Assembly: GCA_964464605.1 (NCBI GenBank)
Contig: CAYXJN010000005.1
Location: 62,001-126,000, forward strand
Direction of reading: 5' to 3'
Length of the DNA: 64,000 nucleotides
From: an uncultured Ignavibacteriales bacterium
Lineage (GTDB): Bacteria > Zixibacteria > MSB-5A5 > GN15 > FEB-12
Position 1 is the first letter of the stretch; every line of letters begins with the position of its first letter. Shown piece after piece: positions 33,714 through 62,601 of the stretch. The notes under the pieces were generated by a model, which was not told the origin of the DNA, made no database searches, and worked only from the letters and a program-made list of their open reading frames with translations. Position numbers and translations under genes: made by a program.

Positions 33714-36050
33714 TCAGTTGGCGGAATCAGGTGTCAAAATGAGCGTTTGAACACTGTGGGCAATGACTTGCTCATGCGTAAATGGCAGATTCCACCGGCG
33801 ACCGGACTCCCACAGCGGGAAAAAGTCAAAGAAATGGTCGCTCATGGGGTTACCGGATTCTCCGGCCGGCAAAACGAGGGTTGCCTCGTCGATTTTTGCG
33901 AAATCGACAATAAACCGCATACTCGGGGCGACAATGGTTCGAAATGAACCATCCTTTGTCGGGACGGCGAAAGCGGCGTTAAGTGTTCCGGACGAACCCG
34001 CCCACGGCCACGGTCCTTTTCGTAATTCCAAAATCGAACTGACCACCGGCACTTCGGCGAAAGGATGCTGCATCGCCAAGCTGTTTATATCCCCCCAGCG
34101 GTTATTGCCGAGATCACCGACTGCGTTTTTCATAGCGGAAAGCAGAGTTGAATCATCGGGTGCGGCGTTTTCGCCGAAAATTTCATCCTCAAGCCAGATT
34201 GTCCGGACACCCCGGGCGAGTGAATCGCCGACCAGGGATGCATGCGACGCCAGCTTCAAATGGCGGATAAACAGCTGGATGACCGCCGTCGGACGCGATT
34301 CCAGATCGGTAGCGCCATCCCATTGAGCGACCGTATCGGCGAGTGCCGCATTCCCCATCTTTCGTAGCTGATCCGCCGCCAGATTTTTCCAGCGCACGAG
34401 ACTGAAATCATGGCAGTCCATCTGGAACTTCTCGCAATCCCGCACCGAAACAAGAACTGCCGAGTCAAGCAGATGATTGATCCGCAGAATCCGGTCGGCG
34501 GCAAACGAGCCGGGAAGTTCATAGGGGAGATTTGTCGCCGGGATATTATTACAGGATGCCAGCCAACCGCGGGGCGGGTTATAAGCATGCGGAGTCATTT
34601 CGAGTGGCCAATACCCGCGCCATTCACACGTACTGTCACTTCCGTTGAGTGGTGCATTACTGTTTGGCAACGGTCGAATCGGGATTGGCGTACCTAACTG
34701 GTAACCGATATTGCCTTGTTTATCTGCGTACATCCAATTGGCATCAAGCGCGCCAAGCGTGGTAACAGCGCGTCGGAAATCTTCAAACTTGCTGACCGTT
34801 CGCAGGGCAAAACCGGAACTGACCGCCTGATTTAAATCGGCATCATACCCTGCCCAACGCTGCGATATAATTTCTTTGGTGGTGGAATCTTTCCAGATAA
34901 CCGGACCATGATGGGTCAGCCAGACCTGCTCGACATGCGGGGAATCAATGCCGTGAATGAACAGCGTTTCGGGAATAACAGAAAAGCTGCGCCACGTTTC
35001 ACCGCTCCAGTAAACGAGTGAATCCTCCGCCTGAGTCGTTTCCCGATAATATTCGGTGACATCGATTCCGGCGGCGGTAAAGGCAAAGGCCGCTTTGCCG
35101 TTGTGTCCCATCACCACGAACGGTAATCCGGGCAAAGAAATTCCCACAGTGCCGCTTGAATCTGCTGCTATGTGTAAACCCACCGCATACCAGAATTGCG
35201 GGAGCCGGCCGATTTCAAGATGCGGATCGGATGATAAAATCGCATTTCCGGAACTGCTTTTACCGGGGCTAATCACCCAGGCATTCGAACCGCCGCTTGG
35301 GGTAGTTAGTCCCGGTAAAATAGCCTGCGCAGTCGCATGACGGAATTGATCGTCGATATCAAAAAAGCTGATTGAAGAATCAGTCGGTACGGTCGGCGGC
35401 GCCCACGATGGATATTTTGTGCTAATCGTGTTGACACTTCCGGCTCCCTTGGTTTTGTACAATTCCAAAAACCAGCTATCACGGTTCTGCAATGAATTGG
35501 AAAACCAGGTTTGAAAGCTCAGGGCGGCAAGACAGTCTTTGACTGTCCATTCAGTGAAGGGGATGCCTAAGATTTGAAATTCGAAGGGAAGCGCTTTACA
35601 GTTTTTGACATAGAAATTAACCCCATCTGCGTAAATCTGTAGACGCTTTTTGTTTTCTTCCGTTAGCGTTGCCATCGCGCTGTCGGCAAGGCGATGGTGA
35701 CCAATTCGGCGCGCTTCCAAATCATATGATAAAGAAATTGGTCCCAGTAACTCAGAAAGTTTCCCCTGCGAAATACGGCGGATAAGCTCCATTTGAAACA
35801 GGCGGTCGGATGCATGCAGCCACCCCATCGAAAAAAGCGCGTCCTGTTCATTCTGTGCCCATACCTGCGGAATACCGAGACTGTCGAAGGTTATTTCAAC
35901 CGGATGCGAGAGTGCTTCGACGGTTATTGATCCTTCCCGCTGTGGAACGGAGTTGTGGAGCGTGACATACACATACAGCACCGCTCCGGCAAGCATGCTT
36001 GCCAAAAGAAGCAGGACAGAACGAAGGATGGTTTTCGTACGGGGTTTCAC
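33714..36050 (-). CDS. Penicillin acylase family Ntn-hydrolase, membrane-anchored or exported
   Basis: N-terminal TM; GWLHASDRLFQME, autoproteolysis site GG|SNAW, SDPHL, PGLP.V.MGHN, PSMRFIVD, GESGNP. GTG start overlaps the upstream TAG. Confidence 0.92.
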   Translation of the reverse strand: MKPRTKTILRSVLLLLASMLAGAVLYVYVTLHNSVPQREGSITVEALSHPVEITFDSLGIPQVWAQNEQDALFSMGWLHASDRLFQMELIRRISQGKLSELLGPISLSYDLEARRIGHHRLADSAMATLTEENKKRLQIYADGVNFYVKNCKALPFEFQILGIPFTEWTVKDCLAALSFQTWFSNSLQNRDSWFLELYKTKGAGSVNTISTKYPSWAPPTVPTDSSISFFDIDDQFRHATAQAILPGLTTPSGGSNAWVISPGKSSSGNAILSSDPHLEIGRLPQFWYAVGLHIAADSSGTVGISLPGLPFVVMGHNGKAAFAFTAAGIDVTEYYRETTQAEDSLVYWSGETWRSFSVIPETLFIHGIDSPHVEQVWLTHHGPVIWKDSTTKEIISQRWAGYDADLNQAVSSGFALRTVSKFEDFRRAVTTLGALDANWMYADKQGNIGYQLGTPIPIRPLPNSNAPLNGSDSTCEWRGYWPLEMTPHAYNPPRGWLASCNNIPATNLPYELPGSFAADRILRINHLLDSAVLVSVRDCEKFQMDCHDFSLVRWKNLAADQLRKMGNAALADTVAQWDGATDLESRPTAVIQLFIRHLKLASHASLVGDSLARGVRTIWLEDEIFGENAAPDDSTLLSAMKNAVGDLGNNRWGDINSLAMQHPFAEVPVVSSILELRKGPWPWAGSSGTLNAAFAVPTKDGSFRTIVAPSMRFIVDFAKIDEATLVLPAGESGNPMSDHFFDFFPLWESGRRWNLPFTHEQVIAHSVQTLILTPDSAN

Positions 36051-37405
36051 TAATTATTAATACCGCAGGCGGGGGCGGGAATACGGCCGCCGCGACGGAT
36101 AAAATCGGCAGAGGAAAACCGGGAGACCGGCATAATCGGGGCGGTTCCTAAAAGGCCGCCATACTCGACTGATTGACCGACTGTTTTGCCGGGAACCGGA
36201 ATAATACGGACGGCAGTGGTTTTGTTGTTCACCACACCGATAGCGGCTTCATCGGCAATAATCGCCGCGATAGTTTCAACTGGTGTATCACCGGGAACAG
36301 CGACCATATCAAGTCCGACTGAGCAGACAGCCGTCATCGCTTCCAATTTTTCAAGTGATATTGCACCTGCTTCGACTGCGCGAATCATACCGGCATCTTC
36401 AGAAACCGGAATGAACGCGCCGGATAACCCACCGACAAACGAGGAAGCCATCAACCCTCCTTTTTTCACCGCGTCATTCAGCAGCATGAGCGCTGCCGTA
36501 GTGCCGGGTGCGCCGCAGCGTTCGATTCCCATCGCTTCCAGAATATCCGCAACCGAATCTCCTTCGGCGGGAGTGGGGGCTAACGAGAGATCGACAATCC
36601 CAAACGGAACGCCGAGCCGTTCGGATACTTTTCGTCCTGCCAGTTCTCCCATACGGGTTACTTTAAAGGCAGTGCGTTTGATAACTTCAGCCAGCGTTCC
36701 GATATCACAGCTGCCTGCTTTGCGCACGGCGTTGAGTACGACGCCGGGGCCGGAGATACCGACATTGATAACCACTTCCGGTTCGGAAACGCCATGAAAG
36801 GCACCGGCAATGAACGGATTGTCTTCTACCGCATTGGCGAAGACGACCAATTTGCAGCAACCGAGCGCATTTTCCGTTTTGGCGGCGGTGTCTTTGATGA
36901 TATGACCCATCAGCGCGATCGCATCCATGTTGATTCCCGCTTTGGTCGAGGCGACATTTACCGATGAGCAGATTCGTTTAGTGGTAGCAAGGGCATCCGG
37001 AATCGATTCGATTAGGTTGCGATCACCGGTGGTCATCCCTTTTTGTACTAATGCGCCGTAGCCACCTAAATAATCGATACCGAGTTCTGCTGCGCAGTTG
37101 TCGAGTGTTTCGGCGATTTCGATGAGGGTCCCTTTATCATGTCCGCTTCCGACGATACCGATCGGGGTTACAGCGATTCTTTTGTTCGCGATCGGAATAC
37201 CGTAATCGGCGGAAACTTTCTCGACGGTTTTGACATGATGCTCTGCTTTGGCAAGCAGTTTGGCGCGGATATTGGCGATTAATCGCTTCGGGTCGGAAGT
37301 CGCACAATCCAACAGCGAAATGCCCATGGTGACGGTACGGATGTCGAGATGCTCGACTTCCGTCATATGAATCGTTTCGACTATTTCCTGCGGATGGTAT
37401 GACAT
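36050..37405 (-). CDS. UPF0210/DUF711 PFL-like family protein
   Basis: [81 protein letters not shown]. Confidence 0.93.
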
Positions 37406-37429
37406 AAAATTATGTACGAACGAAAAACG

Positions 37430-37957
37430 TTAAATACGGTGCATGTAGCGGAAGATGTCTTCATGCATGATGAACACCTTCATGCCCAGCTGCGTTTCGG
37501 TATCTTTGATCCGGTCACGTACCAGCGCAAAGTCCATTTTGCAGTCCTGAATATCGACAATCATGATCATCGAGAAAAAATCCTGCATGATTGTCTGCGA
37601 AATATCTTCGATATTGCAGTGCAGTTCCGCCAGCACTTTGGTAATGGCCGCGACAACGCCCGGGCGGTTTTTGCCGAAGGCCGCCACGATCACGCGGTTG
37701 CTTTGTCCCTGTGATATCTTGTTGTAAAGCCCGGAAACATCGCTCCCCGGTTCAGTGAAATTTGCCAGTGAAGATTTGGAATCCCGTGATGAGGCCGCGC
37801 AGGTGACAGCAGGAATCGACGGATTCCCCTGATCCTGTTTCATCGAATCGACGACTGAGTCGATTACCCGGCGGAGCGCTTTGGCATCAAGCGATGCGCC
37901 CATCCGCCCGACAACAATTTCCGTAATCCGGCTGATTTCCTGTTCAGAAAAATTCAT
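37430..37957 (-). CDS. UPF0237 ACT-domain protein with ~85-aa N-terminal extension
   Basis: GKNRPGVVA, NIEDISQTIMQDFFSMIMIVD and C-terminal EDIFRYMHRI; lies directly upstream of UPF0210 as in the known pair. Confidence 0.9.
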   Translation of the reverse strand: MNFSEQEISRITEIVVGRMGASLDAKALRRVIDSVVDSMKQDQGNPSIPAVTCAASSRDSKSSLANFTEPGSDVSGLYNKISQGQSNRVIVAAFGKNRPGVVAAITKVLAELHCNIEDISQTIMQDFFSMIMIVDIQDCKMDFALVRDRIKDTETQLGMKVFIMHEDIFRYMHRI

Positions 37958-37960
37958 GTG

Positions 37961-38098
37961 TTACGCGCGTGATGAGAATTGCGAACGTTCGGTGTATCGT
38001 TCGATCAGTTTTGCGGCGACGAACCCGATGATGATACCGGCAACGAATGAAGCCAGCCATTCCAGACGGCGTTTGGTTTGTTCGCTTAACGGTTTCAT
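37961..38098 (-). CDS. Small single-pass membrane protein, 45 aa (absent from ORF track)
   Basis: MKPLSEQTKRRLEWLASFVAGIIIGFVAAKLIERYTERSQFSSRA*; ATG overlaps the BMC-P stop (ATGA); TAA ends 3 nt before the ACT gene ATG, filling the gap exactly. Confidence 0.75.
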   Translation of the reverse strand: MKPLSEQTKRRLEWLASFVAGIIIGFVAAKLIERYTERSQFSSRA

Positions 38099-38421
38099 CC
38101 GGCTTTTTTCTTGTAATGAATTTTTTCGGGGTCCAAATCGCCGGTATAGAAGCTCGACTGTACTTCGTATTCGTCGATGATTCCGGTAACGGCTGCTTCG
38201 ATGGATGCGTTCTCATTCCCAATCGCCAAACGAGCGGCGCGGCCATAGGCGACAATCACCACTTCACCTTCGCCTGCACCGAGTACATCGGCTGCGACAA
38301 CGGTATCGGTATTCGGTGCTTTTTTCAGGTTAATGGGCTGGATAATGAGAAATTTGAGGCCATCGGTATTCGATGTTTTTCTCGTTGCCCAGAGTGTGCC
38401 GACGACGCGCCCGATAAACAT
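38095..38421 (-). CDS. BMC vertex pentamer (BMC-P, EutN/CcmL family)
   Basis: MFIGRVVGTLWATRK...GLKFLII...VAADVLGAGEGEVVIVAYGRAAR...IEAAVTGIID. Confidence 0.95.
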   Translation of the reverse strand: MFIGRVVGTLWATRKTSNTDGLKFLIIQPINLKKAPNTDTVVAADVLGAGEGEVVIVAYGRAARLAIGNENASIEAAVTGIIDEYEVQSSFYTGDLDPEKIHYKKKAG

Positions 38422-38423
38422 GG

Positions 38424-38942
38424 CTAACCCAGTTTCAGCGCGCTCTTGAGGGCATCCACCAACTGCGCTTTGCCGGCCATCGAAATTTCCCGTCCCTTAA
38501 TGCTGAGGTTAGAAACGGTGCGGGCTAACTGACGAAGTTCAGTAACAGTCATGTTTTCAAGTTCATGCGCGGAGGTTGGCTGCTTGATACTATCGCCGCC
38601 ATATTGCGAGTCACTGTGAATCGAGCTTAAGGCAGGGCGATTATCGGGATTGTATTTCGATACATAACGCGCATCCGGCAGTATCGTTACCAGTTCATTG
38701 TCCGGGCGGGGGATAACAGTGGTAGCGACCACTTCACCTGCTTGTTCTGCTGCGCGAGCGCCGGCTTCAACGGCTGATTGCACTGCGCTGAGTTCACCTT
38801 CAATGCGAAGGGTAAGATAGGCGGCATCGGTAACTTCAGCGGAAGATACCACCACACCGGCCGCTTTTGCTGCTGCATCGGCGGCGACAATCGCGCCGAT
38901 AAGGCCGTTTGTTTCGATAAGTCCAAGTGCGAACATTGTCAT
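38424..38942 (-). CDS. BMC shell hexamer (BMC-H) with C-terminal helical extension
   Basis: ALGLIETNGLIGAIVAADAAAKAA, GELSAVQSAVEAG, VIPRP; tail ELENMTVTELRQLAR...GREISMAGKAQLV. Confidence 0.95.
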   Translation of the reverse strand: MTMFALGLIETNGLIGAIVAADAAAKAAGVVVSSAEVTDAAYLTLRIEGELSAVQSAVEAGARAAEQAGEVVATTVIPRPDNELVTILPDARYVSKYNPDNRPALSSIHSDSQYGGDSIKQPTSAHELENMTVTELRQLARTVSNLSIKGREISMAGKAQLVDALKSALKLG

Positions 38943-38948
38943 TGGCCG

Positions 38949-38977
38949 AAGATACCCGCATTCAAACTTTCTGTAAA
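38949..38977 (-). promoter_or_regulatory. Sigma70-type promoter of the BMC operon, probably leaderless
   Basis: Minus strand TTTACA-N17-TATCTT, then 6 nt, then ATG; no SD sequence. Confidence 0.55.
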
Positions 38978-39030
38978 TGAATACTTAGTGACGTTGTCAC
39001 CTTTCTCTTTTTGATCGCATGATTTACCCC

Positions 39031-39069
39031 AAAAAGAAACCACCCGTATCCCCCTCGGACACGAGTGGC
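39031..39069 (-). terminator. Intrinsic terminator in the activator-BMC intergenic region
   Basis: Minus strand CCACTCGTGTCC-GAGGG-GGATACGGGTGG then TTTCTTTTT; two G-U pairs form only on the minus strand. Confidence 0.75.
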
Positions 39070-39124
39070 ACCCACCAAAGAGAAAAGAACAGACCGACTG
39101 CTTTACAGCGTCGGATTCAGGACA
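39031..39124 (-). ncRNA. Candidate ~95-nt small RNA
   Basis: Lies between a sigma54-type promoter and a terminator; GNRA-capped hairpin CCGACGCT-GTAA-AGCAGTCGG, pyrimidine-rich linker, terminator stem. Confidence 0.45.
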
Positions 39125-39134
39125 CAAAATGTGT

Positions 39135-39150
39135 CGCAAATTTTTTGCCG
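39135..39150 (-). promoter_or_regulatory. Candidate sigma54 -24/-12 promoter
   Basis: Minus strand CGGCAAAAAATTTGCG has exact GG-N10-GC spacing with GGCA and TTGC cores; downstream of a sigma54 activator gene. Confidence 0.5.
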
Positions 39151-39277
39151 TACCGATGTGGATAACGTGACCGGTTGTCGTATCGCATTGCAAGTCATTG
39201 CGTTACAGGGAGTGCGGCGCATCGAATGTGATGGAAATGAAAGAAAAAGTCGTATGATTTTACGAGCAGGTTGATCT

Positions 39278-39326
39278 AAATGAAAACGGTAAGCGATTGT
39301 TTTGTAATCACTTACCGTTTCATTTT
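39278..39326. repeat. Long imperfect inverted repeat (~21-bp arms)
   Basis: AAATGAAAACGGTAAGCGATT-GTTTTGT-AATCACTTACCGTTTCATTTT. Confidence 0.85.
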
Positions 39327-39389
39327 GACTCTATTTGAGAACGGTACGAATTTCAGTAAAATTCGTGAAACCGTACGTTCTTTTGTCGT

Positions 39390-41636
39390 CTAATGGAGCG
39401 CAACTCCTTCAACATGAATCTGGTACCGCTTGATCTTCGAACGGACCGTTGCTTCATGAATTCCGAGCAGGCGGGCAGCTTCGGATTTGTTTCCTTTTGC
39501 CGCCAAGAGTGCATCGGTAAGCAGCTGACGTTCAAATTGCTCAATGCGATCGAAGAAGGTGGTCGATTGGACCGCCGTCGTGTTGGTAAACATCGGCCGG
39601 GCGAGTTCAACCAGATCACCGTTACCCAGTTCTTCTGCCTGAGCTTCCAAGCGTTTCACTTTGTTATAGAGTTCGCGCACATTACCCGGCCAATGATAGG
39701 CAAGGAATGTTTGTAACAGTTCTGCGCTGACTTTAAATCCGCGCTGTCCGAGTGTTCCATTCGTAATGAACAGATCAAGCAGCAGCGGGATATCTTCTTT
39801 CCGTTCACGCAGCGCTGGGATATAGTGAATATCTCCGTCACAGATGCGGAAATACAGATCACGGCGGAACAGACCGCCTTCAACAAGCGAGGTCAAATCC
39901 CGATTTGTGGCGCAGATTAGGTTGATATCCAGTTTGACGGGTACCGTGCCGCCGAGCGGAGTAACTTCCCGACGTTCGAGCACACCGAGCAGTTTGGCCT
40001 GTAAATGAAGCGGCATGTCGCCGATTTCATCCAGAAACAATACACCGCCGTTGGCCGCGACGAACAATCCGGCTTTGTCCTCACGTGCGTCGGTAAATGC
40101 ACCGCGGCGATAGCCGAACAATTCCGATTCCAAAAGGGAGTCAGGTACACCGGCACAGTTGATCGACACAAACGGCGTTCCCGGGCGAACCTTGGAATGG
40201 AAAAAACGCGCCATCTGATCTTTACCGACACCTGTTTCTCCCGTTAACAAAACGGGAAGATTGGAGCGTGAGCCGATCAGCACGATCTGCTGTTTTACCC
40301 GTTCGACCGCAGCACAGCGAGTGATGAAATCAGCACTCTGCTGTTTGCTCTGATCGCTGCCGGCGATTTTGCGCTGATTGGTTTGTTCGAGCGCTTCGCC
40401 GATTTTATCGATCATCGTCGTGTGTCCGGATTGCGCGTAATATTCTTCAGCGCGAATCAGGTGCAGTACCCGTTTGTTGACCGGTATAGCAGTTGCGCAG
40501 CCGGCAAAGTATAGGATTTCCGCTTCTTCGAATCGCACACCGGATTGACGGGCTGATTCGATTGCACGGGCCCAGAATTCCTTTGCGGTTTCCTGCTGTG
40601 TTTCCGCTTCGGCAATCATGGCTAAAATGCGGTGCAGTCCGGCAAGATCACCGGTATTCGGCGTTTCCTGCATGACCACGATCGCTTTCTGCGCCAGCTG
40701 ACGGGCAGTGCGATAGTCACGAAGCGAGAGATTAGTTTCGGCTAATTGGCGCATCACGCGCGCGGTTAAACCGGAATCAGGCAGTACCTGTTCGGATAAA
40801 CGCAACGCATGAGCCAATACCTGTTTGCTTTCTTCAAGCAAACCCATACGGCGGCGCAGTTCGCCGATGTAGCTGTAGTACATCACTTCATCTCGCTTGT
40901 CGCCTGATAAACGGAGCGGTGTTACCGCTTCGCTCAAGGTTGCATCCGCTTCGGCATAATGACCGGATTGGATACAGGCGTAGGCGTAGGACATAAGGGC
41001 ACGGGCTGTTTCGGCATGGTCACGCAACGCGCGGGAGAGTTCGATATTGGTGCGCAAATGCGCTTTTGCGGATTGCAAGTTTCCGGAGAACAGATGGATA
41101 CGGCCGATATTACCGGTCATCAGGGCAATTTTTGCCGTATCGTTAAGTTTGTGCGCGATTTCCAGTGCATCGGCCAGAACATTCAACGCATTTTTCAAAT
41201 CATGCTGCTTGAAATAAATTCCGGCGAGACTGTTCAGCGCCCGCGCCTGACCTTCCAACAGGTCAAGGCGACGGAAGAGTGATTCGGCATCACGGAATGC
41301 CTGTTCCGCTTCTTTCGGTTTATCACTCTTTTTGAAAATATTGCCCAGCACGAAGAAAACTTCTGCGAGTTCCGCGGTTTCTCCGTTTTGGGTAAGGAAA
41401 TGCTGCGCCATGCGGGCAGCTTTTAGTGCGGCTGTGAGGTCAGCCAGCGCGCTGTATGCAGAAGCGGCCATTCTCATGAGAATGCCGGATTCTGCATCGG
41501 CTCGCTGTTCAATAACGGGACGATGAATATCCACGTACCGGACCACACCCGCAAAATCCCGCTTTTCAAGTAATGTCGCGGCTATGCGAACATCAAATGA
41601 TGTGGGATTCGACGATTCTGTGAAGGTACGGTTCAT
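39390..41636 (-). CDS. TPR-repeat sigma54-dependent activator (bEBP) with Fis-type HTH
   Basis: About 400 aa of TPR-like repeats; Walker A GETGVGKD, ESELFG, GAFTDA, FLDEIGD, FRRDLYFR, WPGNVREL; HTH GNKSEAARLLGI. Confidence 0.93.
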   Translation of the reverse strand: MNRTFTESSNPTSFDVRIAATLLEKRDFAGVVRYVDIHRPVIEQRADAESGILMRMAASAYSALADLTAALKAARMAQHFLTQNGETAELAEVFFVLGNIFKKSDKPKEAEQAFRDAESLFRRLDLLEGQARALNSLAGIYFKQHDLKNALNVLADALEIAHKLNDTAKIALMTGNIGRIHLFSGNLQSAKAHLRTNIELSRALRDHAETARALMSYAYACIQSGHYAEADATLSEAVTPLRLSGDKRDEVMYYSYIGELRRRMGLLEESKQVLAHALRLSEQVLPDSGLTARVMRQLAETNLSLRDYRTARQLAQKAIVVMQETPNTGDLAGLHRILAMIAEAETQQETAKEFWARAIESARQSGVRFEEAEILYFAGCATAIPVNKRVLHLIRAEEYYAQSGHTTMIDKIGEALEQTNQRKIAGSDQSKQQSADFITRCAAVERVKQQIVLIGSRSNLPVLLTGETGVGKDQMARFFHSKVRPGTPFVSINCAGVPDSLLESELFGYRRGAFTDAREDKAGLFVAANGGVLFLDEIGDMPLHLQAKLLGVLERREVTPLGGTVPVKLDINLICATNRDLTSLVEGGLFRRDLYFRICDGDIHYIPALRERKEDIPLLLDLFITNGTLGQRGFKVSAELLQTFLAYHWPGNVRELYNKVKRLEAQAEELGNGDLVELARPMFTNTTAVQSTTFFDRIEQFERQLLTDALLAAKGNKSEAARLLGIHEATVRSKIKRYQIHVEGVALH

Positions 41637-41983
41637 CAGTTAGCTCCTCCATTTTTAACGGAGCTGTTGTCTGACGGAGCGGGTTGCGGAGCAACGCGCG
41701 GCTGTTTTGGTGCGATCAGGAGATTGAGTAAGGTGTTCGAAAGCCAGATTTCAAACCGCGGTGAAAGCGTAGCGCTTCGCATTGCCTGACGGCCTGCTTT
41801 ACCGCCGCCGTTACCATTCGTGCCGGAGCCATCGCCACCCCACGGGTGATCTTCATTTTCCACGCCATTTTCGGTATTAGCCGGACGGTGGTAATACGGA
41901 CTTTCCCGTCCGTCTATATCCCCCACAAAAGCAAGGGTGGCAGTGAAGAGCATACTCAAAGTGAGTACAAATGAGCGTTTCAT
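41636..41983 (-). CDS. Small secreted low-complexity protein (115 aa) with EDHPWGG motif
   Basis: AAGGAG RBS; signal peptide MKRSFVLTLSMLFTATLAF; TGA overlaps the activator ATG (TGATG). Confidence 0.8.
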   Translation of the reverse strand: MKRSFVLTLSMLFTATLAFVGDIDGRESPYYHRPANTENGVENEDHPWGGDGSGTNGNGGGKAGRQAMRSATLSPRFEIWLSNTLLNLLIAPKQPRVAPQPAPSDNSSVKNGGAN

Positions 41984-42108
41984 GGACTAAGGCTCCTTTC
42001 CGAGGTTTTATAAAATTACCGGTTAGGTATTTATGTATTCGAATACATGGCGGGTGAGGCAATTCGTGAGGGGAATGCTATGTACATCCTTGTCAGCATC
42101 CATACTGT

Positions 42109-42136
42109 ATGATAGCACTTGGTCTACAAGTGTCAA
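42109..42136 (-). promoter_or_regulatory. Sigma70-type promoter of the small protein-bEBP operon
   Basis: Minus strand TTGACA-N16-TATCAT with extended -10 TG. Confidence 0.65.
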
Positions 42137-42287
42137 TGCCGAAATGCGGGTGATATGTTTGGCGTTGTTATCGAGGGGATTCCTGTTGCTACGGGTTGTA
42201 TCTTTAGCTTGCACTGGTGAGTAAATAATTCCTATCTTGCAGGCTCTGTTTGACTTTTAAACGTGTAACCTAAGGAGCGGATTCCGC

Positions 42288-44717
42288 ATGTCGCTGGAAC
42301 GCCAGAAAATAGAGACCATTTTCCTCGAAGAGGAGATGAAGTCTTCGTATCTCGATTACTCAATGTCCGTCATTACCAACCGGGCGCTGCCCGATGCCCG
42401 TGACGGCTTGAAACCTTCCAACCGCCGCATTTTGGTCGCTATGAATGACCTCAATTTGCAGCCGGGCCGCCCCCACAGAAAATGCGCTAAAATTTGCGGT
42501 GATACCTCCGGTAACTACCACCCGCACGGTGAGCAAGTAGTCTACCCGACCCTCGTTCGTATGGCGCAGGATTTCAACATGCGCTATCCGCTGGTGGACG
42601 GGCAGGGGAATTTCGGGTCAATCGATGGTGACGGTGCTGCGGCAATGCGTTACACTGAAGCCCGCCTTACCCCGATCGCAGTCGAAATGCTGGCTGACAT
42701 GGAAAAAGAGACCGTCGATTTCATGCCGAATTACGACGGCACTCTGCAGGAACCGAAAGTACTTCCCGGTAAATTCCCGAATCTGCTTTGTAACGGAACA
42801 TCCGGTATCGCCGTCGGTATGGCGACTAACGTCGCGCCGCATAATCTTCGCGAAATCGCTCAGGCGATTATCAAAGTTATCGATGACAGTGAAGTCACGG
42901 TTCAGGATCTCCGTCGTATTGTCCCGGGGCCGGATTTTCCGACCGGCGGTATTATTAACGGTCGTGAAGGAATCCGTCAGGCGCAGGAAACCGGCAAAGG
43001 GCATATAATGGTTCGCGCCCGGATTTCGTCTGAAAAAATGAAGTCCGGCAAAGAGGCGCTAATCGTCACAGAAATTCCGTATCAGGTCAATAAATCGAAC
43101 CTGCTTGAAAAAATAGCGGAACTGGTTCGTGATAAACGGCTCGAAGGTATCTCTGATCTGCGGGATGAGTCCGATCGTGACGGTATGCGTATCGTTATCG
43201 AACTCAAGCGTGATTCACAGGCTGAGATCGTTATCAACCAGTTGTACAAACATACGCAGCTGCAGACGACATTCTCGGTTATCTCATTGGCGCTCGATAA
43301 AGGGGTGCCGCGTCTGTTGAATCTGAAAGAGCAGATTCAGCTGTTTATTAACCATCGCCATGAAGTCGTTATCCGCCGTACCAAGTACGATCTGCGTAAG
43401 GCGGAAGAGCGGGCGCATATCCTTGAAGGGTATCGTATCGCGTTGGATAATATCGATGCCGTTATCGAGCTCATCAAAAAATCGAAAGATACCCCGGCGG
43501 CTCGCGATGGGTTGATGACCAAATTCAAACTCTCTGAAATTCAGGCCAACGCCATTCTCGACATGCGGCTTGCCCGACTGACCGGGTTGGAGCGGCAAAA
43601 AATTCAGGATGAGTACGAAGAGATTATCAAGAAAATTCAGGAGTACAAAGCGATCCTCGCCTCAGAATCCCTTCGCATGAAGATCATCAAAGATGAAACG
43701 AAGGATTTGGCGGAACGGTTCGGCGATGAACGTCGTACCGAAATCCAGGATGCAGCCGAAGAATTGACGGTTGAAGACCTGATTGCAGAAGAAGAAATGG
43801 TAATCACCATTTCGCATATGGGCTATGTCAAACGACTCTCCGTTTCCCAGTATCGCAAACAACAGCGTGGCGGAAAAGGTGTGATCGGCATTGAAACGAA
43901 AGAAGATGATTTCGCTGAACATCTCTTTATCGCCTCAACTCATGATTATATTTTGTTCTTTTCGACTAAAGGCCGCTGCTATTGGGTGAAGGTGCATGAA
44001 ATTCCGGCTGCCGGCAAACTGGCAAAAGGAAAACCGATCGTCAATATGTGCCGGATGGAACCCGGAGAAACTGTTACCGCTTTCTGCCGCACCCGTACAT
44101 TCACGCCGGATAAGTTTATCATGATGGCGACCAAGAACGGTCAGATCAAAAAGACCTCGCTCGATGCCTTCTCTAATCCGCGTATCACCGGTATCAATGC
44201 GATTGACCTGCCGGATGATGATGAACTGATTGAAGCAGCGCTCACCGACGGCAGCAATGAAGTCGTGTTGGCTACCCGTATGGGCATGGCGATTCGGTTC
44301 CATGAAGAGCATGTCCGCGCGATGGGACGTACTTCGTATGGCGTCCGCGGTATATCGCTTGATAAGGGTGATTATGTTATCGGAATGGTCGTCGTCAAGC
44401 GGGACAGCACGCTGTTAGTCGTAACCGAAAACGGCTATGGCAAACGTACTTCGATTGAGGACTATCGTATAACTAACCGTGGCGGTAAAGGGGTTATTAA
44501 CGTGAAAACCTCTGACCGGAACGGGGAAGTGGTTGCGATTATGGAAGTGCTCGATAATGATGAACTGATATTGATTACCAAAAACGGTATCGCCAATCGT
44601 CAGGCTGTCAGTCAGATAAAAGTCATCGGTCGCAATACCCAGGGCGTGAGATTGATCTCGCTTAAAGGGGATGATTTAGTGACCGATGTCGCACGAGTTG
44701 TCAATGAGGATGCGTAA
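42288..44717 (+). CDS. gyrA: DNA gyrase subunit A
   Basis: RALPDARDGLKP, YHPHG, AAMRYTEAR, GyrA-box QQRGGKG and pinwheel CTD repeats; AAGGAG RBS. Confidence 0.97.
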   Translation: MSLERQKIETIFLEEEMKSSYLDYSMSVITNRALPDARDGLKPSNRRILVAMNDLNLQPGRPHRKCAKICGDTSGNYHPHGEQVVYPTLVRMAQDFNMRYPLVDGQGNFGSIDGDGAAAMRYTEARLTPIAVEMLADMEKETVDFMPNYDGTLQEPKVLPGKFPNLLCNGTSGIAVGMATNVAPHNLREIAQAIIKVIDDSEVTVQDLRRIVPGPDFPTGGIINGREGIRQAQETGKGHIMVRARISSEKMKSGKEALIVTEIPYQVNKSNLLEKIAELVRDKRLEGISDLRDESDRDGMRIVIELKRDSQAEIVINQLYKHTQLQTTFSVISLALDKGVPRLLNLKEQIQLFINHRHEVVIRRTKYDLRKAEERAHILEGYRIALDNIDAVIELIKKSKDTPAARDGLMTKFKLSEIQANAILDMRLARLTGLERQKIQDEYEEIIKKIQEYKAILASESLRMKIIKDETKDLAERFGDERRTEIQDAAEELTVEDLIAEEEMVITISHMGYVKRLSVSQYRKQQRGGKGVIGIETKEDDFAEHLFIASTHDYILFFSTKGRCYWVKVHEIPAAGKLAKGKPIVNMCRMEPGETVTAFCRTRTFTPDKFIMMATKNGQIKKTSLDAFSNPRITGINAIDLPDDDELIEAALTDGSNEVVLATRMGMAIRFHEEHVRAMGRTSYGVRGISLDKGDYVIGMVVVKRDSTLLVVTENGYGKRTSIEDYRITNRGGKGVINVKTSDRNGEVVAIMEVLDNDELILITKNGIANRQAVSQIKVIGRNTQGVRLISLKGDDLVTDVARVVNEDA

Positions 44718-60354: not shown

Positions 60355-62601
60355 ATGAAACTATCTGCCGCAGAACTCTACGCTGTCATTCGCGAAAAAT
60401 CGACTCACCCGATGAAAATGAAGGAGCTCGCCAAGCTTCTGGCGGTAAAAAGCGCCGAGTATCCCCGTTTTCGCAATGCAGTAAAAGAGCTCATCAATCA
60501 TGGTAAATTAGTGAAGCTCAATCGCGGGCAGATCGGGGTGGCGGAAGAGTTGTCGGTGGTGGTTGGAAAAATTTCCATTACCCGTTCCGGTGTCGGCTTT
60601 TTGATTCGAGAGGGAGGGGAAGATATTCTCATTCCCGAACATGCCTTGAGCACCGCGCTCGATAGTGACACGGTTATGGTGCGGATGGAAGGACATCGCA
60701 ACGGACGGATAACCGGATCGATTATCAGAATCATGGAGCGGGCGGCGCGATCGATTGTCGGTATTTATCATATCGGACGTAATTTTTCATTCGTCAAACC
60801 GGATAATCCTCGCATTCACCGGGATATTTATATACCCGAAATGGCATCGCTGAACGCTAAAGAAGGGGAAAAAGTTGTCGCTCGACTGACGGCATGGGAA
60901 GATCAGTACCAGCATCCGGAAGGGGAAATTGTCGAGCGGCTCGGCTTTCCCGGGGATCACACCGTCGATATGCTGTCGGTTTTGCGCGGCTATGGCCTGC
61001 CGGATGCATTCCCGTTAGCGGTATTACAGCAGGCGGATCAGGCGGCATCGACACTGCTTGATGAGGAGATCGCCCGACGGGTCGATTTGACCAACGAAGC
61101 TATTTATGCAATCGATCCGGAGGATGCCAAAGATCATGATGATGCTATTTCCGTTGTCCGCATCGATGGCGGCTACCGGCTTGGGGTGCATATTGCGGAT
61201 GTTTCTTTCTACGTACGAGAGGGAACGCTTTTGGATACCGAAGCATTTCAGCGCGCGACCTCGGTCTATTTACCCGGGATGGTAATTCCGATGCTCCCCG
61301 AGGTGCTTTCCAATGATGTCTGTTCCTTGCGCGCTGACACTGTCCGGCTGGCGCATTCGGCTATTATCGATTTTGATAAGCACGGAAAAATGCTGCGGTG
61401 GGAACGGCAGGATAGCGTTATCAAGTCGAAAGCGAAACTTACCTATGAAGAGGTTCAGCGATTTTTTGATACCGGTGAAATGTCGCATGGCGTCAAACGG
61501 GTGCATGAAAACCTGACGGTCGCACGAGAACTGGCACAAGTATTAACCGCGCGGCGGTTGCATGAGGGGTCTATTGACTTTGATTTGCCGGAAGTGAAAA
61601 TTGTACTCGACGAGCACGGTAAAACGATTGACCTGAAAAACCGGGAGCGGTTGGAGTCGCATCGGTTAGTCGAGGAATGTATGCTTGCGGCCAATAAGGC
61701 GATGGCGCTTGAAGTTTCAAAAAGAGGGCTTCCCATGTTGAATCGGGTGCATGACCGCCCGGATGCGGAAAAGCTTGAAGAGTTTTCAAAATTGGTCACA
61801 CGGCTCGGTTATACCTTTCCCGTTTCACCGGCAATGAAGCCGAGCCAGTTTACCCAGTTCTTAGAGCGAATCAAAACCGCTCCGGAAAAAGAGTTCATCA
61901 ACGAGCTGTTGCTGCGCTCAATGAAAAAAGCGGTCTATCAGCGGGAAAATATCGGGCATTTTGGATTAGCGTTTACCCATTATACGCATTTTACTTCGCC
62001 GATTCGCCGTTATCCCGATCTGTTTGTGCATCGTTTGCTTCGCAATATCAAACCGGGCGGCTATTCACCGACTCTTTCCAAAAATATTATCTCTGTCATC
62101 GATAAAGTCGGTGAGCATTGTTCTGAAATGGAGCGGATGGCCGAACAAGCCGAACGGGACGCTGTCAAGATCAAGCAGGTTGCGTATATGGAGCAGCATG
62201 TCGGCAATGAGTACGGCGGCCGTGTTTCCGGTGTTATGGCGTATGGTTTCTTTGTCCGGTTGGATAATTTGGGTGCTGAAGGGATGGTCAGGCTTTCGAC
62301 AATCGACGATGACTATTATCAATATGATGAGAAGGGGTATCGGATAGTTGGTGTGCATACCGGAAGAATTTTCCGGCTTGGGGATACGGTACGTGTGCAG
62401 GTTTTGCGCGTCGACAGAATGCGAAACGAAATCGACCTCCAGTTGGTACAAGATAAAGAGACCTCAAAGTCGCAGCGCACACGGACAACGGGGTCACGCA
62501 CAAAGGTACCGGCAAAAAAGCATGGAAAACCGATACCGGCACCGCGAGGGAGAAGAAACCGTCTAAAAGGGAAGCGCAAAGGAATGCCGAAGCGCAGATA
62601 A
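60355..62601 (+). CDS. rnr: Ribonuclease R
   Basis: IDPEDAKDHDDA, VHIADVS, TSVYLP, IPMLP, GHFGLA, YTHFTSPIRRYPDL, S1 domain, basic tail. Confidence 0.96.
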   Translation: MKLSAAELYAVIREKSTHPMKMKELAKLLAVKSAEYPRFRNAVKELINHGKLVKLNRGQIGVAEELSVVVGKISITRSGVGFLIREGGEDILIPEHALSTALDSDTVMVRMEGHRNGRITGSIIRIMERAARSIVGIYHIGRNFSFVKPDNPRIHRDIYIPEMASLNAKEGEKVVARLTAWEDQYQHPEGEIVERLGFPGDHTVDMLSVLRGYGLPDAFPLAVLQQADQAASTLLDEEIARRVDLTNEAIYAIDPEDAKDHDDAISVVRIDGGYRLGVHIADVSFYVREGTLLDTEAFQRATSVYLPGMVIPMLPEVLSNDVCSLRADTVRLAHSAIIDFDKHGKMLRWERQDSVIKSKAKLTYEEVQRFFDTGEMSHGVKRVHENLTVARELAQVLTARRLHEGSIDFDLPEVKIVLDEHGKTIDLKNRERLESHRLVEECMLAANKAMALEVSKRGLPMLNRVHDRPDAEKLEEFSKLVTRLGYTFPVSPAMKPSQFTQFLERIKTAPEKEFINELLLRSMKKAVYQRENIGHFGLAFTHYTHFTSPIRRYPDLFVHRLLRNIKPGGYSPTLSKNIISVIDKVGEHCSEMERMAEQAERDAVKIKQVAYMEQHVGNEYGGRVSGVMAYGFFVRLDNLGAEGMVRLSTIDDDYYQYDEKGYRIVGVHTGRIFRLGDTVRVQVLRVDRMRNEIDLQLVQDKETSKSQRTRTTGSRTKVPAKKHGKPIPAPRGRRNRLKGKRKGMPKRR

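Follow-up and report, generated by a model that had tools for sequence, protein, structure and literature searches.

A sigma-54 activator that carries a tetratricopeptide repeat (TPR) superhelix in place of a receiver domain, and whose gene overlaps that of a small exported protein, raises the question of what such a regulator senses and which promoter it serves. We addressed this question for a locus on the minus strand of a window of 64,000 nucleotides (nt), that is, the whole stretch of DNA analysed here, which comprises positions 62,001 to 126,000 of contig CAYXJN010000005.1 (GenBank assembly GCA_964464605.1) from an uncultured Ignavibacteriales bacterium placed by GTDB in Zixibacteria (MSB-5A5; GN15; FEB-12). 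The small protein, which bears an HPW motif, and the activator are followed by a predicted enhancer-like palindrome, a sigma-54 promoter and a small RNA, and the best explanation of the whole, to which we assign a rough probability of 0.55, is that this cassette is a self-contained regulatory unit retained by the lineage.

According to this explanation, a sigma-70 promoter would yield a transcript of two translationally coupled genes, the first encoding a small, Sec-exported and mostly disordered protein that has a single amphipathic helix and an acidic HPWG(G) motif that does not vary, and the second encoding a cytoplasmic sigma-54 activator in which a 420-residue TPR superhelix of the peptide-binding type would replace the receiver domain. 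The activator would bind TCGTA-N6-TACGA just past its own terminator and use ATP to open the neighbouring -24/-12 promoter, from which a small RNA of ~95 nt would be made, and the anti-Shine-Dalgarno-like strands of this RNA would pair, independently of Hfq, with purine-rich ribosome-binding sites. As input, the small protein would be the cognate partner of the TPR domain, bound as an extended chain. We hold with high confidence that the cassette and its predicted RNA output are real features; our confidence in the input mechanism is moderate to low.

The small exported protein and its coupled activator

An earlier note on this DNA had described a promoter, an open reading frame (ORF) of 115 amino acids (aa) and an overlapped activator of 748 aa. 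All of these elements were found, and the note's account of the bicistron stood; what it had missed was the output, since the apparent sigma-54 target is a small RNA directly downstream. The features of the bicistron are as follows.

42109..42136, minus strand: bicistron promoter, sigma-70-type, TTGACA-16-TATCAT with an upstream TG (11/12 matches)
41984..42102, minus strand: bicistron leader of ~120 nt, counted from the transcription start implied by the promoter
41636..41983, minus strand: small exported protein, 115 aa, consisting of a signal peptide, RxxP[YW] block, EDHPWGGD, G/N-rich linker, helix and polar tail
41831..41854, minus strand: EDHPWGGD motif, codons E44-D51, with H46, W48, G49 and G50 invariant in 18 sequences
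41717..41761, minus strand: amphipathic helix of residues 75-89, the only one predicted for the mature protein (AlphaFold2; block-mean predicted local distance difference test score, pLDDT, of 73-79 over residues 71-90)
39390..41636, minus strand: sigma-54 activator (bacterial enhancer-binding protein), 748 aa, by Pfam, with no receiver-domain match
40377..41636, minus strand: TPR sensor domain, residues 1-420, a predicted all-helical superhelix of 22 helices (AlphaFold2, mean pLDDT 92.3)
39837..40322, minus strand: AAA+ sigma-54 interaction domain, residues 439-600 (PF00158, 2.7e-56, 190 bits)
39423..39545, minus strand: HTH_8 (Fis-type) DNA-binding domain, residues 698-738 (Pfam, 8.2e-13)
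39283..39320, minus strand: bicistron terminator, a hairpin and T-run read from the sequence and not listed by a simple terminator scan

The TTGACA-16-TATCAT element was the top of seven promoter-like sites in 38900-42300 (shuffle mean 3.1), and TTGACA...TAnnnT was similarly placed, 136-160 nt 5' of the small-ORF ATG, in 16 of 21 loci. Both starts are preceded by Shine-Dalgarno sequences (AAGGAG 8 nt 5' of the small-ORF ATG and GGAGGAG 5' of the activator ATG), and the stop of the small ORF shares one base with the start of the activator (TGATG). This arrangement is tight throughout, with the distance from small-ORF stop to activator start ranging from a 16-nt overlap to a 13-nt gap in all 14 loci in which both ORFs were called. 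At the other end of the bicistron, the terminator (CGGTAAGCG...CGCTTACCG plus T-run) recurs in most of 16 aligned regions upstream of the sigma-54 promoter.

When 60 relatives were searched in six frames, the matches were weak, and 19 loci were fetched and inspected. Open frames of 116-143 aa with an MKR-type signal peptide, the RxxP[YW] block and an acidic stretch ending in H[PT]WGG were present at 18 of the 19, and in the same 18 homologues the motif was followed by a linker rich in G, N and D, an amphipathic segment that resembles a helix and a polar tail. Wherever the small ORF was identified, the activator lay directly 3' of it, at 18 of the 19 loci and in 20 of 20 larger contexts of 20 kilobases (kb) spanning all four families (f1 to f4) of the window's order. 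The association of a signal-peptide ORF carrying an HPW motif with homologous activators, on which the earlier note had turned, was thus borne out among the relatives, and it extended to 10/10 paralogous pair loci and to 12/12 loci of another family, both taken up below.

A profile built from the 18 homologues detected the small-protein family in 142 of 159 genomes of the order (f1 95/107, f2 4/5, f3 14/14, f4 29/33) and gave only seven weak matches in 125 genomes from the rest of the phylum; in an all-genome DNA pattern scan, 15 of at least 120 stretches matched the same profile at E<=1e-6. The protein has no match in Pfam or NCBIfam. Its family comprises 313 clusters in the protein database, and among the 120 listed every source-given name was 'hypothetical protein', most of these names pointing to Zixibacteria; the best score in the ESM Atlas was 0.80, to unnamed clusters. 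A literature search, with supplements outside it, found nothing on the HPWGG motif, the HPW/TPR pair or the RNA, and nothing pairing a sigma-54 enhancer-binding protein or TPR with such a small ORF appeared among the titles and abstracts of the matches listed.

HPWGG was invariant in an alignment of 101 sequences, an invariance that was partly built in by choosing candidates via shared five-residue words. At the codon level, 40 distinct 21-nt strings keep H, P/T, W and G fixed and vary at third positions (His as CAC in 16 and CAT in 24; Pro by four codons; Gly as GGT, GGC or GGA), part of this set having been collected by a pattern that fixed the amino acids and left third positions free. Because the third codon positions vary freely, selection appears to act on the protein. 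The signal peptide was read off the sequence as an MKR n-region, a hydrophobic core and small residues, followed by the conserved RxxP[YW] block. AlphaFold2 placed an N-terminal helix at residues 2-27, a low-confidence non-helical stretch at 28-74 that includes EDHPWGGD, the helix at 75-89 and an unstructured tail. The block at 75-89 is conserved across the alignment of 18 sequences as a TG..xD..hydrophobic pattern. We rejected the idea that the second hydrophobic segment spans the membrane and leaves a tail in the cytoplasm, given that most homologues have D, E, K or R inside this segment. One genome of family f4 carries the small ORF twice, and behind the second copy (L156, G179:C1:762000-781900) the activator frame is shortened to 299 aa.

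An ORF with a signal peptide upstream of a coupled gene, carrying a motif rich in Pro, Trp and Gly, could also act in cis as a secretion monitor, its nascent chain stalling the ribosome unless Sec pulls and so setting translation of the activator. SecM, MifM and VemP are monitors of this kind, and known arrest peptides stall next to the downstream start; here the motif lies ~65 codons before the stop. The spacing from P29 to H46 is 17 residues in the window, ~9 in the shortest homologue and at least 25 in the longest, which is unlike a chain measured by the exit tunnel, and no conserved fold was found in the leader mRNA, for which RNAalifold gave no consensus over 18 leaders. We therefore regard a secretion monitor as very improbable. 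The leader also had no match in Rfam, and a scheme in which the small RNA feeds back through the leader was dropped for want of a consensus fold there. Two further observations concern the leader region: the ribosome-binding region of the small ORF (41984-42000, minus strand) is conserved well past the Shine-Dalgarno core, as AACCAAGGAGT in most relatives and GGAAAGGAGCC in the window, and C-rich blocks such as CCCUCAC and CCGCCAUAC are common to the ~120-nt leaders of relatives.

The product of the second gene belongs to the sigma-54 activators, its loop being a GAFTDA variant in this genome. Pfam assigned TPR_12 (1.3e-26) and TPR_MalT to residues ~54-325 and also matched AAA_lid_14, and orthologues from 16 loci were 36-50% identical. 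In the sigma-54 contact loop (residues 512-517, 40086..40103, minus strand), G, A, F, T and the last A of GAFTGA are invariant and the fifth residue (516) varies, being D in the window. The genome holds a single rpoN (Sigma54_DBD, 3.1e-61) and 14 sigma-54 activators. Judged by its model, the TPR domain belongs to the peptide-binding superhelix class: its best folds in the PDB were the peptide-binding TPRs of LGN/Pins (template modelling scores of 0.74-0.79 by target), and a hidden Markov model of the domain matched LGN at 1e-22, RapJ at 8.8e-9 and NprR at 1e-4.

A predicted sigma-54 promoter and small RNA behind the pair

The region past the bicistron terminator contains a second, shorter set of conserved features.

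39250..39265, minus strand: enhancer-like palindrome TCGTAaaatcaTACGA, ~115 nt upstream of the sigma-54 promoter and just past the bicistron terminator
39136..39149, minus strand: sigma-54 (-24/-12) promoter GGCAaaaaaatTTGC, with GGCA-N6-TTGC in 60/62 RNA loci
39031..39126, minus strand: predicted small RNA of ~95 nt (covariance-model match of 63.8 bits, the sole one in the genome)
Parts of the small RNA, minus strand: 5' single strand, hairpin 1, CU-rich stretch at 39075..39089, terminator hairpin at 39039..39069 and U-run
39051..39056, minus strand: GAGGGG loop of the terminator hairpin, present in all 62 rows

A -24/-12 element of the form GGCAY-N5-TTGCW was found 184-366 nt past the activator stop in 16 of 21 loci, and none was found behind the activator at the other five (four f4 loci and one f1 locus). 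TCG[TC]A-N6-T[AG]CGA was present in 59 of the 62 RNA loci, and palindrome and promoter occurred together in 57 of the 62 at a median spacing of 115 nt. The genome contains TCGTA-N6-TACGA six times, and only the copy in the cassette has a sigma-54 promoter nearby. In f4 the RNA homologue lies elsewhere in the genome, yet palindrome and promoter were retained with it at 6/6 fetched loci, a count that excludes a seventh, masked locus and an eighth that was a chance match to the terminator. These regularities are consistent with a dedicated activator-to-RNA unit, to whose palindrome the activator of the cassette would bind.

Past the promoter the conserved sequence runs through GUCAUUUUUACUCC, a hairpin, UCCUCUUUUCUUUGG, a GC-rich hairpin with a GAGGGG loop and a U-run, and the last hairpin was the best terminator in a scan of the region. 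RNAalifold supported this last stem with compensatory changes in 9 of 11 pairs. When 62 sequences were considered, 98.5% of cells were paired and 11/11 pairs showed compensatory change, in an alignment fitted to the model; none of 500 shuffles of the stem reached the observed value on four of five measures, and two of 500 did so on the fifth (pairs changed on both sides). The stretch 38800-42400 had no match in Rfam 15 at E<=1, hence none to Pxr, Qrr or GlmY. We conclude that the element is a new small-RNA family, as predicted from its sequence.

Matches to the RNA covariance model were obtained in 125 of 151 genomes of the order (f1 87/98, f2 5/5, f3 14/14 and, weakly, f4 18/33). Among 113 genomes with both features, the RNA started 2.8-3.2 kb past the start of the small ORF, on the same strand, in 88; in the other 25 the two were on different contigs (22 genomes) or far apart on one contig (3 genomes). 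Loss is also joint, with genus g62 (4 genomes, 88-95% complete) and g18 (95% complete) having no small ORF, no RNA and no orthologue of the TPR activator. Taken together, comparative genomics demonstrates, at the level of sequence, the pair, its coupling, the predicted enhancer-promoter-RNA unit and the link of that unit to the pair.

The two single-stranded stretches of the RNA are CU-rich and anti-Shine-Dalgarno-like. No Hfq gene was found in the genome, which has one gene for CsrA. The CU-rich strands probably pair with purine-rich ribosome-binding sites without Hfq. A role for the RNA as a CsrA sponge was considered and dropped on the ground that it has a single GGA-containing loop only.

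Input to the TPR domain

That the TPR domain has the small protein as its partner is argued most strongly by the diverged versions of the activator, each of which retains a small ORF of its own. A second pair in the same genome (G000:C9:34106-37497, L210/L226) consists of a 124-aa ORF, in which the signal peptide leads directly into GEHPWDGD and is followed by a G/S-rich linker and a helix, and a 984-aa TPR sigma-54 activator beginning 62 nt further on; neither a sigma-54 promoter nor a matching palindrome was found near this pair. This E[HN]PWD type also occurs in relatives of the window genome and had its own TPR activator of the 984-aa type in 10/10 loci, one sequence having ADPWD. A third pair may exist at G000:C5:198730-201183 (L211), where a 690-aa open frame for a TPR-like sigma-54 activator begins 15 nt past an ORF of 122 aa that has a signal peptide, GDEDPFPVG and a helix; 1.5 kb upstream, at C5:197182, there is a good sigma-54 promoter, CGGCATGCCGGTTGCA. 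A further family of the phylum had EHPWQ ORFs in 15 of 20 genomes, and these preceded a TPR activator of 820-848 aa in 12/12 loci. The occurrence of several diverged pairs per lineage suggests a family of such sensors.

These pairs bear directly on the reading in which there is no contact at all, the small protein acting in the envelope only, for example as a periplasmic or membrane-surface factor, and being merely co-expressed with an activator whose TPR domain senses something else. By its signal peptide the mature protein is extracytoplasmic, MalT-like TPR regions match residues 70-237 of the activator, and no importer or relay gene is conserved beside the pair, whose neighbours differ between families; the sensor domain of MalT binds a sugar. 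Against this stand the tight translational coupling in 14/14 loci and the three diverged types of TPR activator, each with its own HPW-type ORF immediately 5', which shared timing alone can hardly explain, and with a sigma-70 promoter driving the pair, the small protein does not count among the activator's outputs. On balance we consider the absence of contact unlikely, while granting it real weight.

If contact is accepted, the partner would have to reach the TPR domain, and the earlier note had proposed peptide quorum sensing, with the exported protein cut to an HPWGG peptide that is re-imported and binds the TPR domain in the manner of RRNPP systems, so that cell density would control the sigma-54 promoter and the RNA. 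The pairing and the conservation of the motif, on which that proposal drew, held up; the export, processing and re-import of an HPWGG pheromone found no such support. Several observations are in its favour: the signal peptide has small residues before a conserved mature N-terminus, the pair is adjacent and conserved, diverged pairs have different motif variants, the E[HN]PWD motif lies directly past the predicted cleavage site, and a sequence relationship of the TPR domain to Rap and NprR can be detected, at the values given above. In known RRNPP systems the mature peptide is imported by an oligopeptide permease. The Opp/Dpp binding protein PF00496 was not found in this genome, the estimated completeness of which is 100% (other importers were not searched), and of the 41 genomes of the order in which it was sought only eight had it (f1 2/24, f2 0/5, f4 0/5, f3 6/6), though the pair is near-universal there. 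The motif is identical across genera, without pherotypes, and could not tell species apart; nor would a pheromone explain the second, conserved helix or the length of 115-143 aa. No RRNPP protein was among the 50 best fold matches of the TPR model.

The RRNPP_detector criteria (PMC10075063) describe receptors 250-500 aa long in which the TPRs follow the effector domain. The activator differs from these in length (748 aa) and in domain order (TPR at 1-420, AAA+/HTH after it); a small Sec-type propeptide, as read from the sequences, does lie beside it. The activator is not an RRNPP member by length and domain order, and it may work in a related way. We judge re-import of a processed peptide to be improbable, more so than the no-contact reading. 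The broader proposition, in which HPW proteins are the extracellular signals of peptide communication among diderms, each TPR activator reading its own HPWGG, HPWD or HPWQ peptide and the RNA answering in the window's order, strikes us as equally hard to credit.

We therefore return to the small protein as the cognate TPR partner and lean slightly towards binding before, or instead of, export, that is, a secretion-coupled partner switch, over re-import of a processed peptide, because such binding needs no importer and fits both the coupling and the disorder. A model of the complex between TPR residues 1-420 and the mature protein (residues 24-115) scored 0.02 and 0.01 against a mark of 0.32; this calculation was uncontrolled and counts neither way.

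Several results weigh against the explanation as a whole. The exported protein and the cytoplasmic sensor lie on opposite sides of the membrane. Binding of the activator to the palindrome is drawn from linkage and co-occurrence in a genome that encodes 14 proteins of this class, and the loop reads GAFTDA in the window versus GAFTGA in at least 90% of 17 aligned orthologues, so that activity could be altered. The RNA model had no match in 20 genomes of the other family with an HPW pair (0/20), and an RNA output is thus not general to such pairs. A scan for mRNA targets, in which duplexes were computed at 2706 crudely called translation starts, yielded no site stronger than the shuffled controls (five seeds, best -28.4 to -30.0 kcal/mol) except one, with -34 versus -30 kcal/mol for the best shuffle, and the ribosome-binding site of the small ORF itself ranked 238 of 2702, with a shorter core, giving no sign of feedback. 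Of six sequencing runs found, two RNA libraries and one run of unrecorded type were compared with the locus; contigs from the RNA libraries cover parts of the two protein genes only, and none covers the RNA or the promoter. One RNA run gave a single identical contig of 263 nt inside the activator gene, and the other gave contigs ~93% alike, among them one at 41163-42072 that includes the small ORF together with the 5' end of the activator gene. Such contigs cannot show transcription, and RNA libraries may hold DNA.

The top site of the target scan belongs to an ORF of 78 aa rich in Cys (G000:C4:201181-201417), the ribosome-binding site of which, GAGAAAGGAACAGACC, is almost fully complementary to the core of the RNA; we do not put it forward as a target.

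Neighbouring genes and known systems

The next gene downstream of the RNA is the first of a small group on the same strand.

38424..38942, minus strand: BMC-H microcompartment shell protein with a C-terminal extension (Pfam BMC, 1.1e-20)

In the window's family, 9 of 12 loci have a BMC-H homologue behind the RNA, as against none of eight loci in the other three families, and its membership in the cassette is doubtful. Beyond the RNA, positions 36050-38942 (minus strand) encode the BMC-H protein, the C-terminal extension of which is SAP-like, an EutN/CcmL vertex protein, a 45-aa membrane-type ORF, an ACT-domain protein and a DUF711 protein. These genes may form a small microcompartment locus, in which no signature enzyme is evident. 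A 440-aa ORF is interposed here in some relatives. On the other side of the cassette, gyrA (42288-44717, plus strand) is divergent from it, a neighbour that was not retained at the other 20 loci examined.

The cassette is compact, with promoter, two genes, putative enhancer, sigma-54 promoter and RNA within 3.1 kb, and it provides a new protein family (none in Pfam or NCBIfam), a predicted new RNA family (none in Rfam) and a class of sigma-54 activators with TPR sensors; we found no literature joining 'Zixibacteria' and 'sigma-54'. Its wider meaning depends on the input. Were binding to precede export, the system would be a Sec-coupled partner switch, for which we know of no precedent; peptide uptake would extend RRNPP-like signalling to diderms and to sigma-54, and the reading of an extracellular signal would join a one-component, RRNPP-like logic to an output like that of LuxO and Qrr.

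Among the systems with which the cassette can be compared, LGN/Pins (GPSM2) gave both the best sequence match and the best fold match to the TPR domain, and its superhelices have been solved with partners such as Inscuteable, NuMA and Frmpd4. LGN/Pins are eukaryotic cell-polarity proteins, however, and the likeness is one of fold class that is silent on function in bacteria. The RRNPP systems (Rap-Phr, NprR-NprX, PlcR-PapR and AimR-AimP) resemble the cassette in placing a small Sec-type exported product beside a cytoplasmic TPR protein and in having diverged pairs with diverged motifs, and the TPR domain here is weakly related to those of Rap and NprR. They differ in that the output here is a sigma-54 ATPase rather than a helix-turn-helix repressor or activator or a phosphatase, and in that the small gene precedes its partner and is coupled to it in translation. 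The motif here is also internal and shows no variation among genera, the lineage is not part of Firmicutes and Opp-type binding proteins were mostly not found.

On the output side, LuxO, GlrR and CbrB are response regulators fed by kinases. Vibrio LuxO-Qrr, E. coli GlrR-GlmY and Pseudomonas CbrB-CrcZ, in which small RNAs are the main targets, share with the putative unit described here a sigma-54 activator dedicated to small-RNA genes. The present cassette has neither a kinase nor a receiver domain, the Rfam scan showed no relation between the RNAs and Hfq was not found. In Myxococcus xanthus, pxr lies downstream of nla19 and has its own sigma-54 promoter, the Pxr RNA of 108 nt following a spacer of 262 nt, and Nla19 is called a response regulator (PMC5568312). 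The two loci agree in the succession of an activator gene, an intergenic sigma-54 promoter and a stem-loop RNA of ~100 nt (here ~95 nt, with the promoter 184-366 nt past the stop), as well as in synteny that is conserved across a lineage. They differ in lineage and in the activator, which in the cassette carries a TPR sensor instead of a receiver domain and is preceded by a coupled gene for a small exported protein; in addition, the RNA had no sequence or structure match to Rfam at E<=1. Of the known layouts, nla19-pxr is the closest to the cassette.

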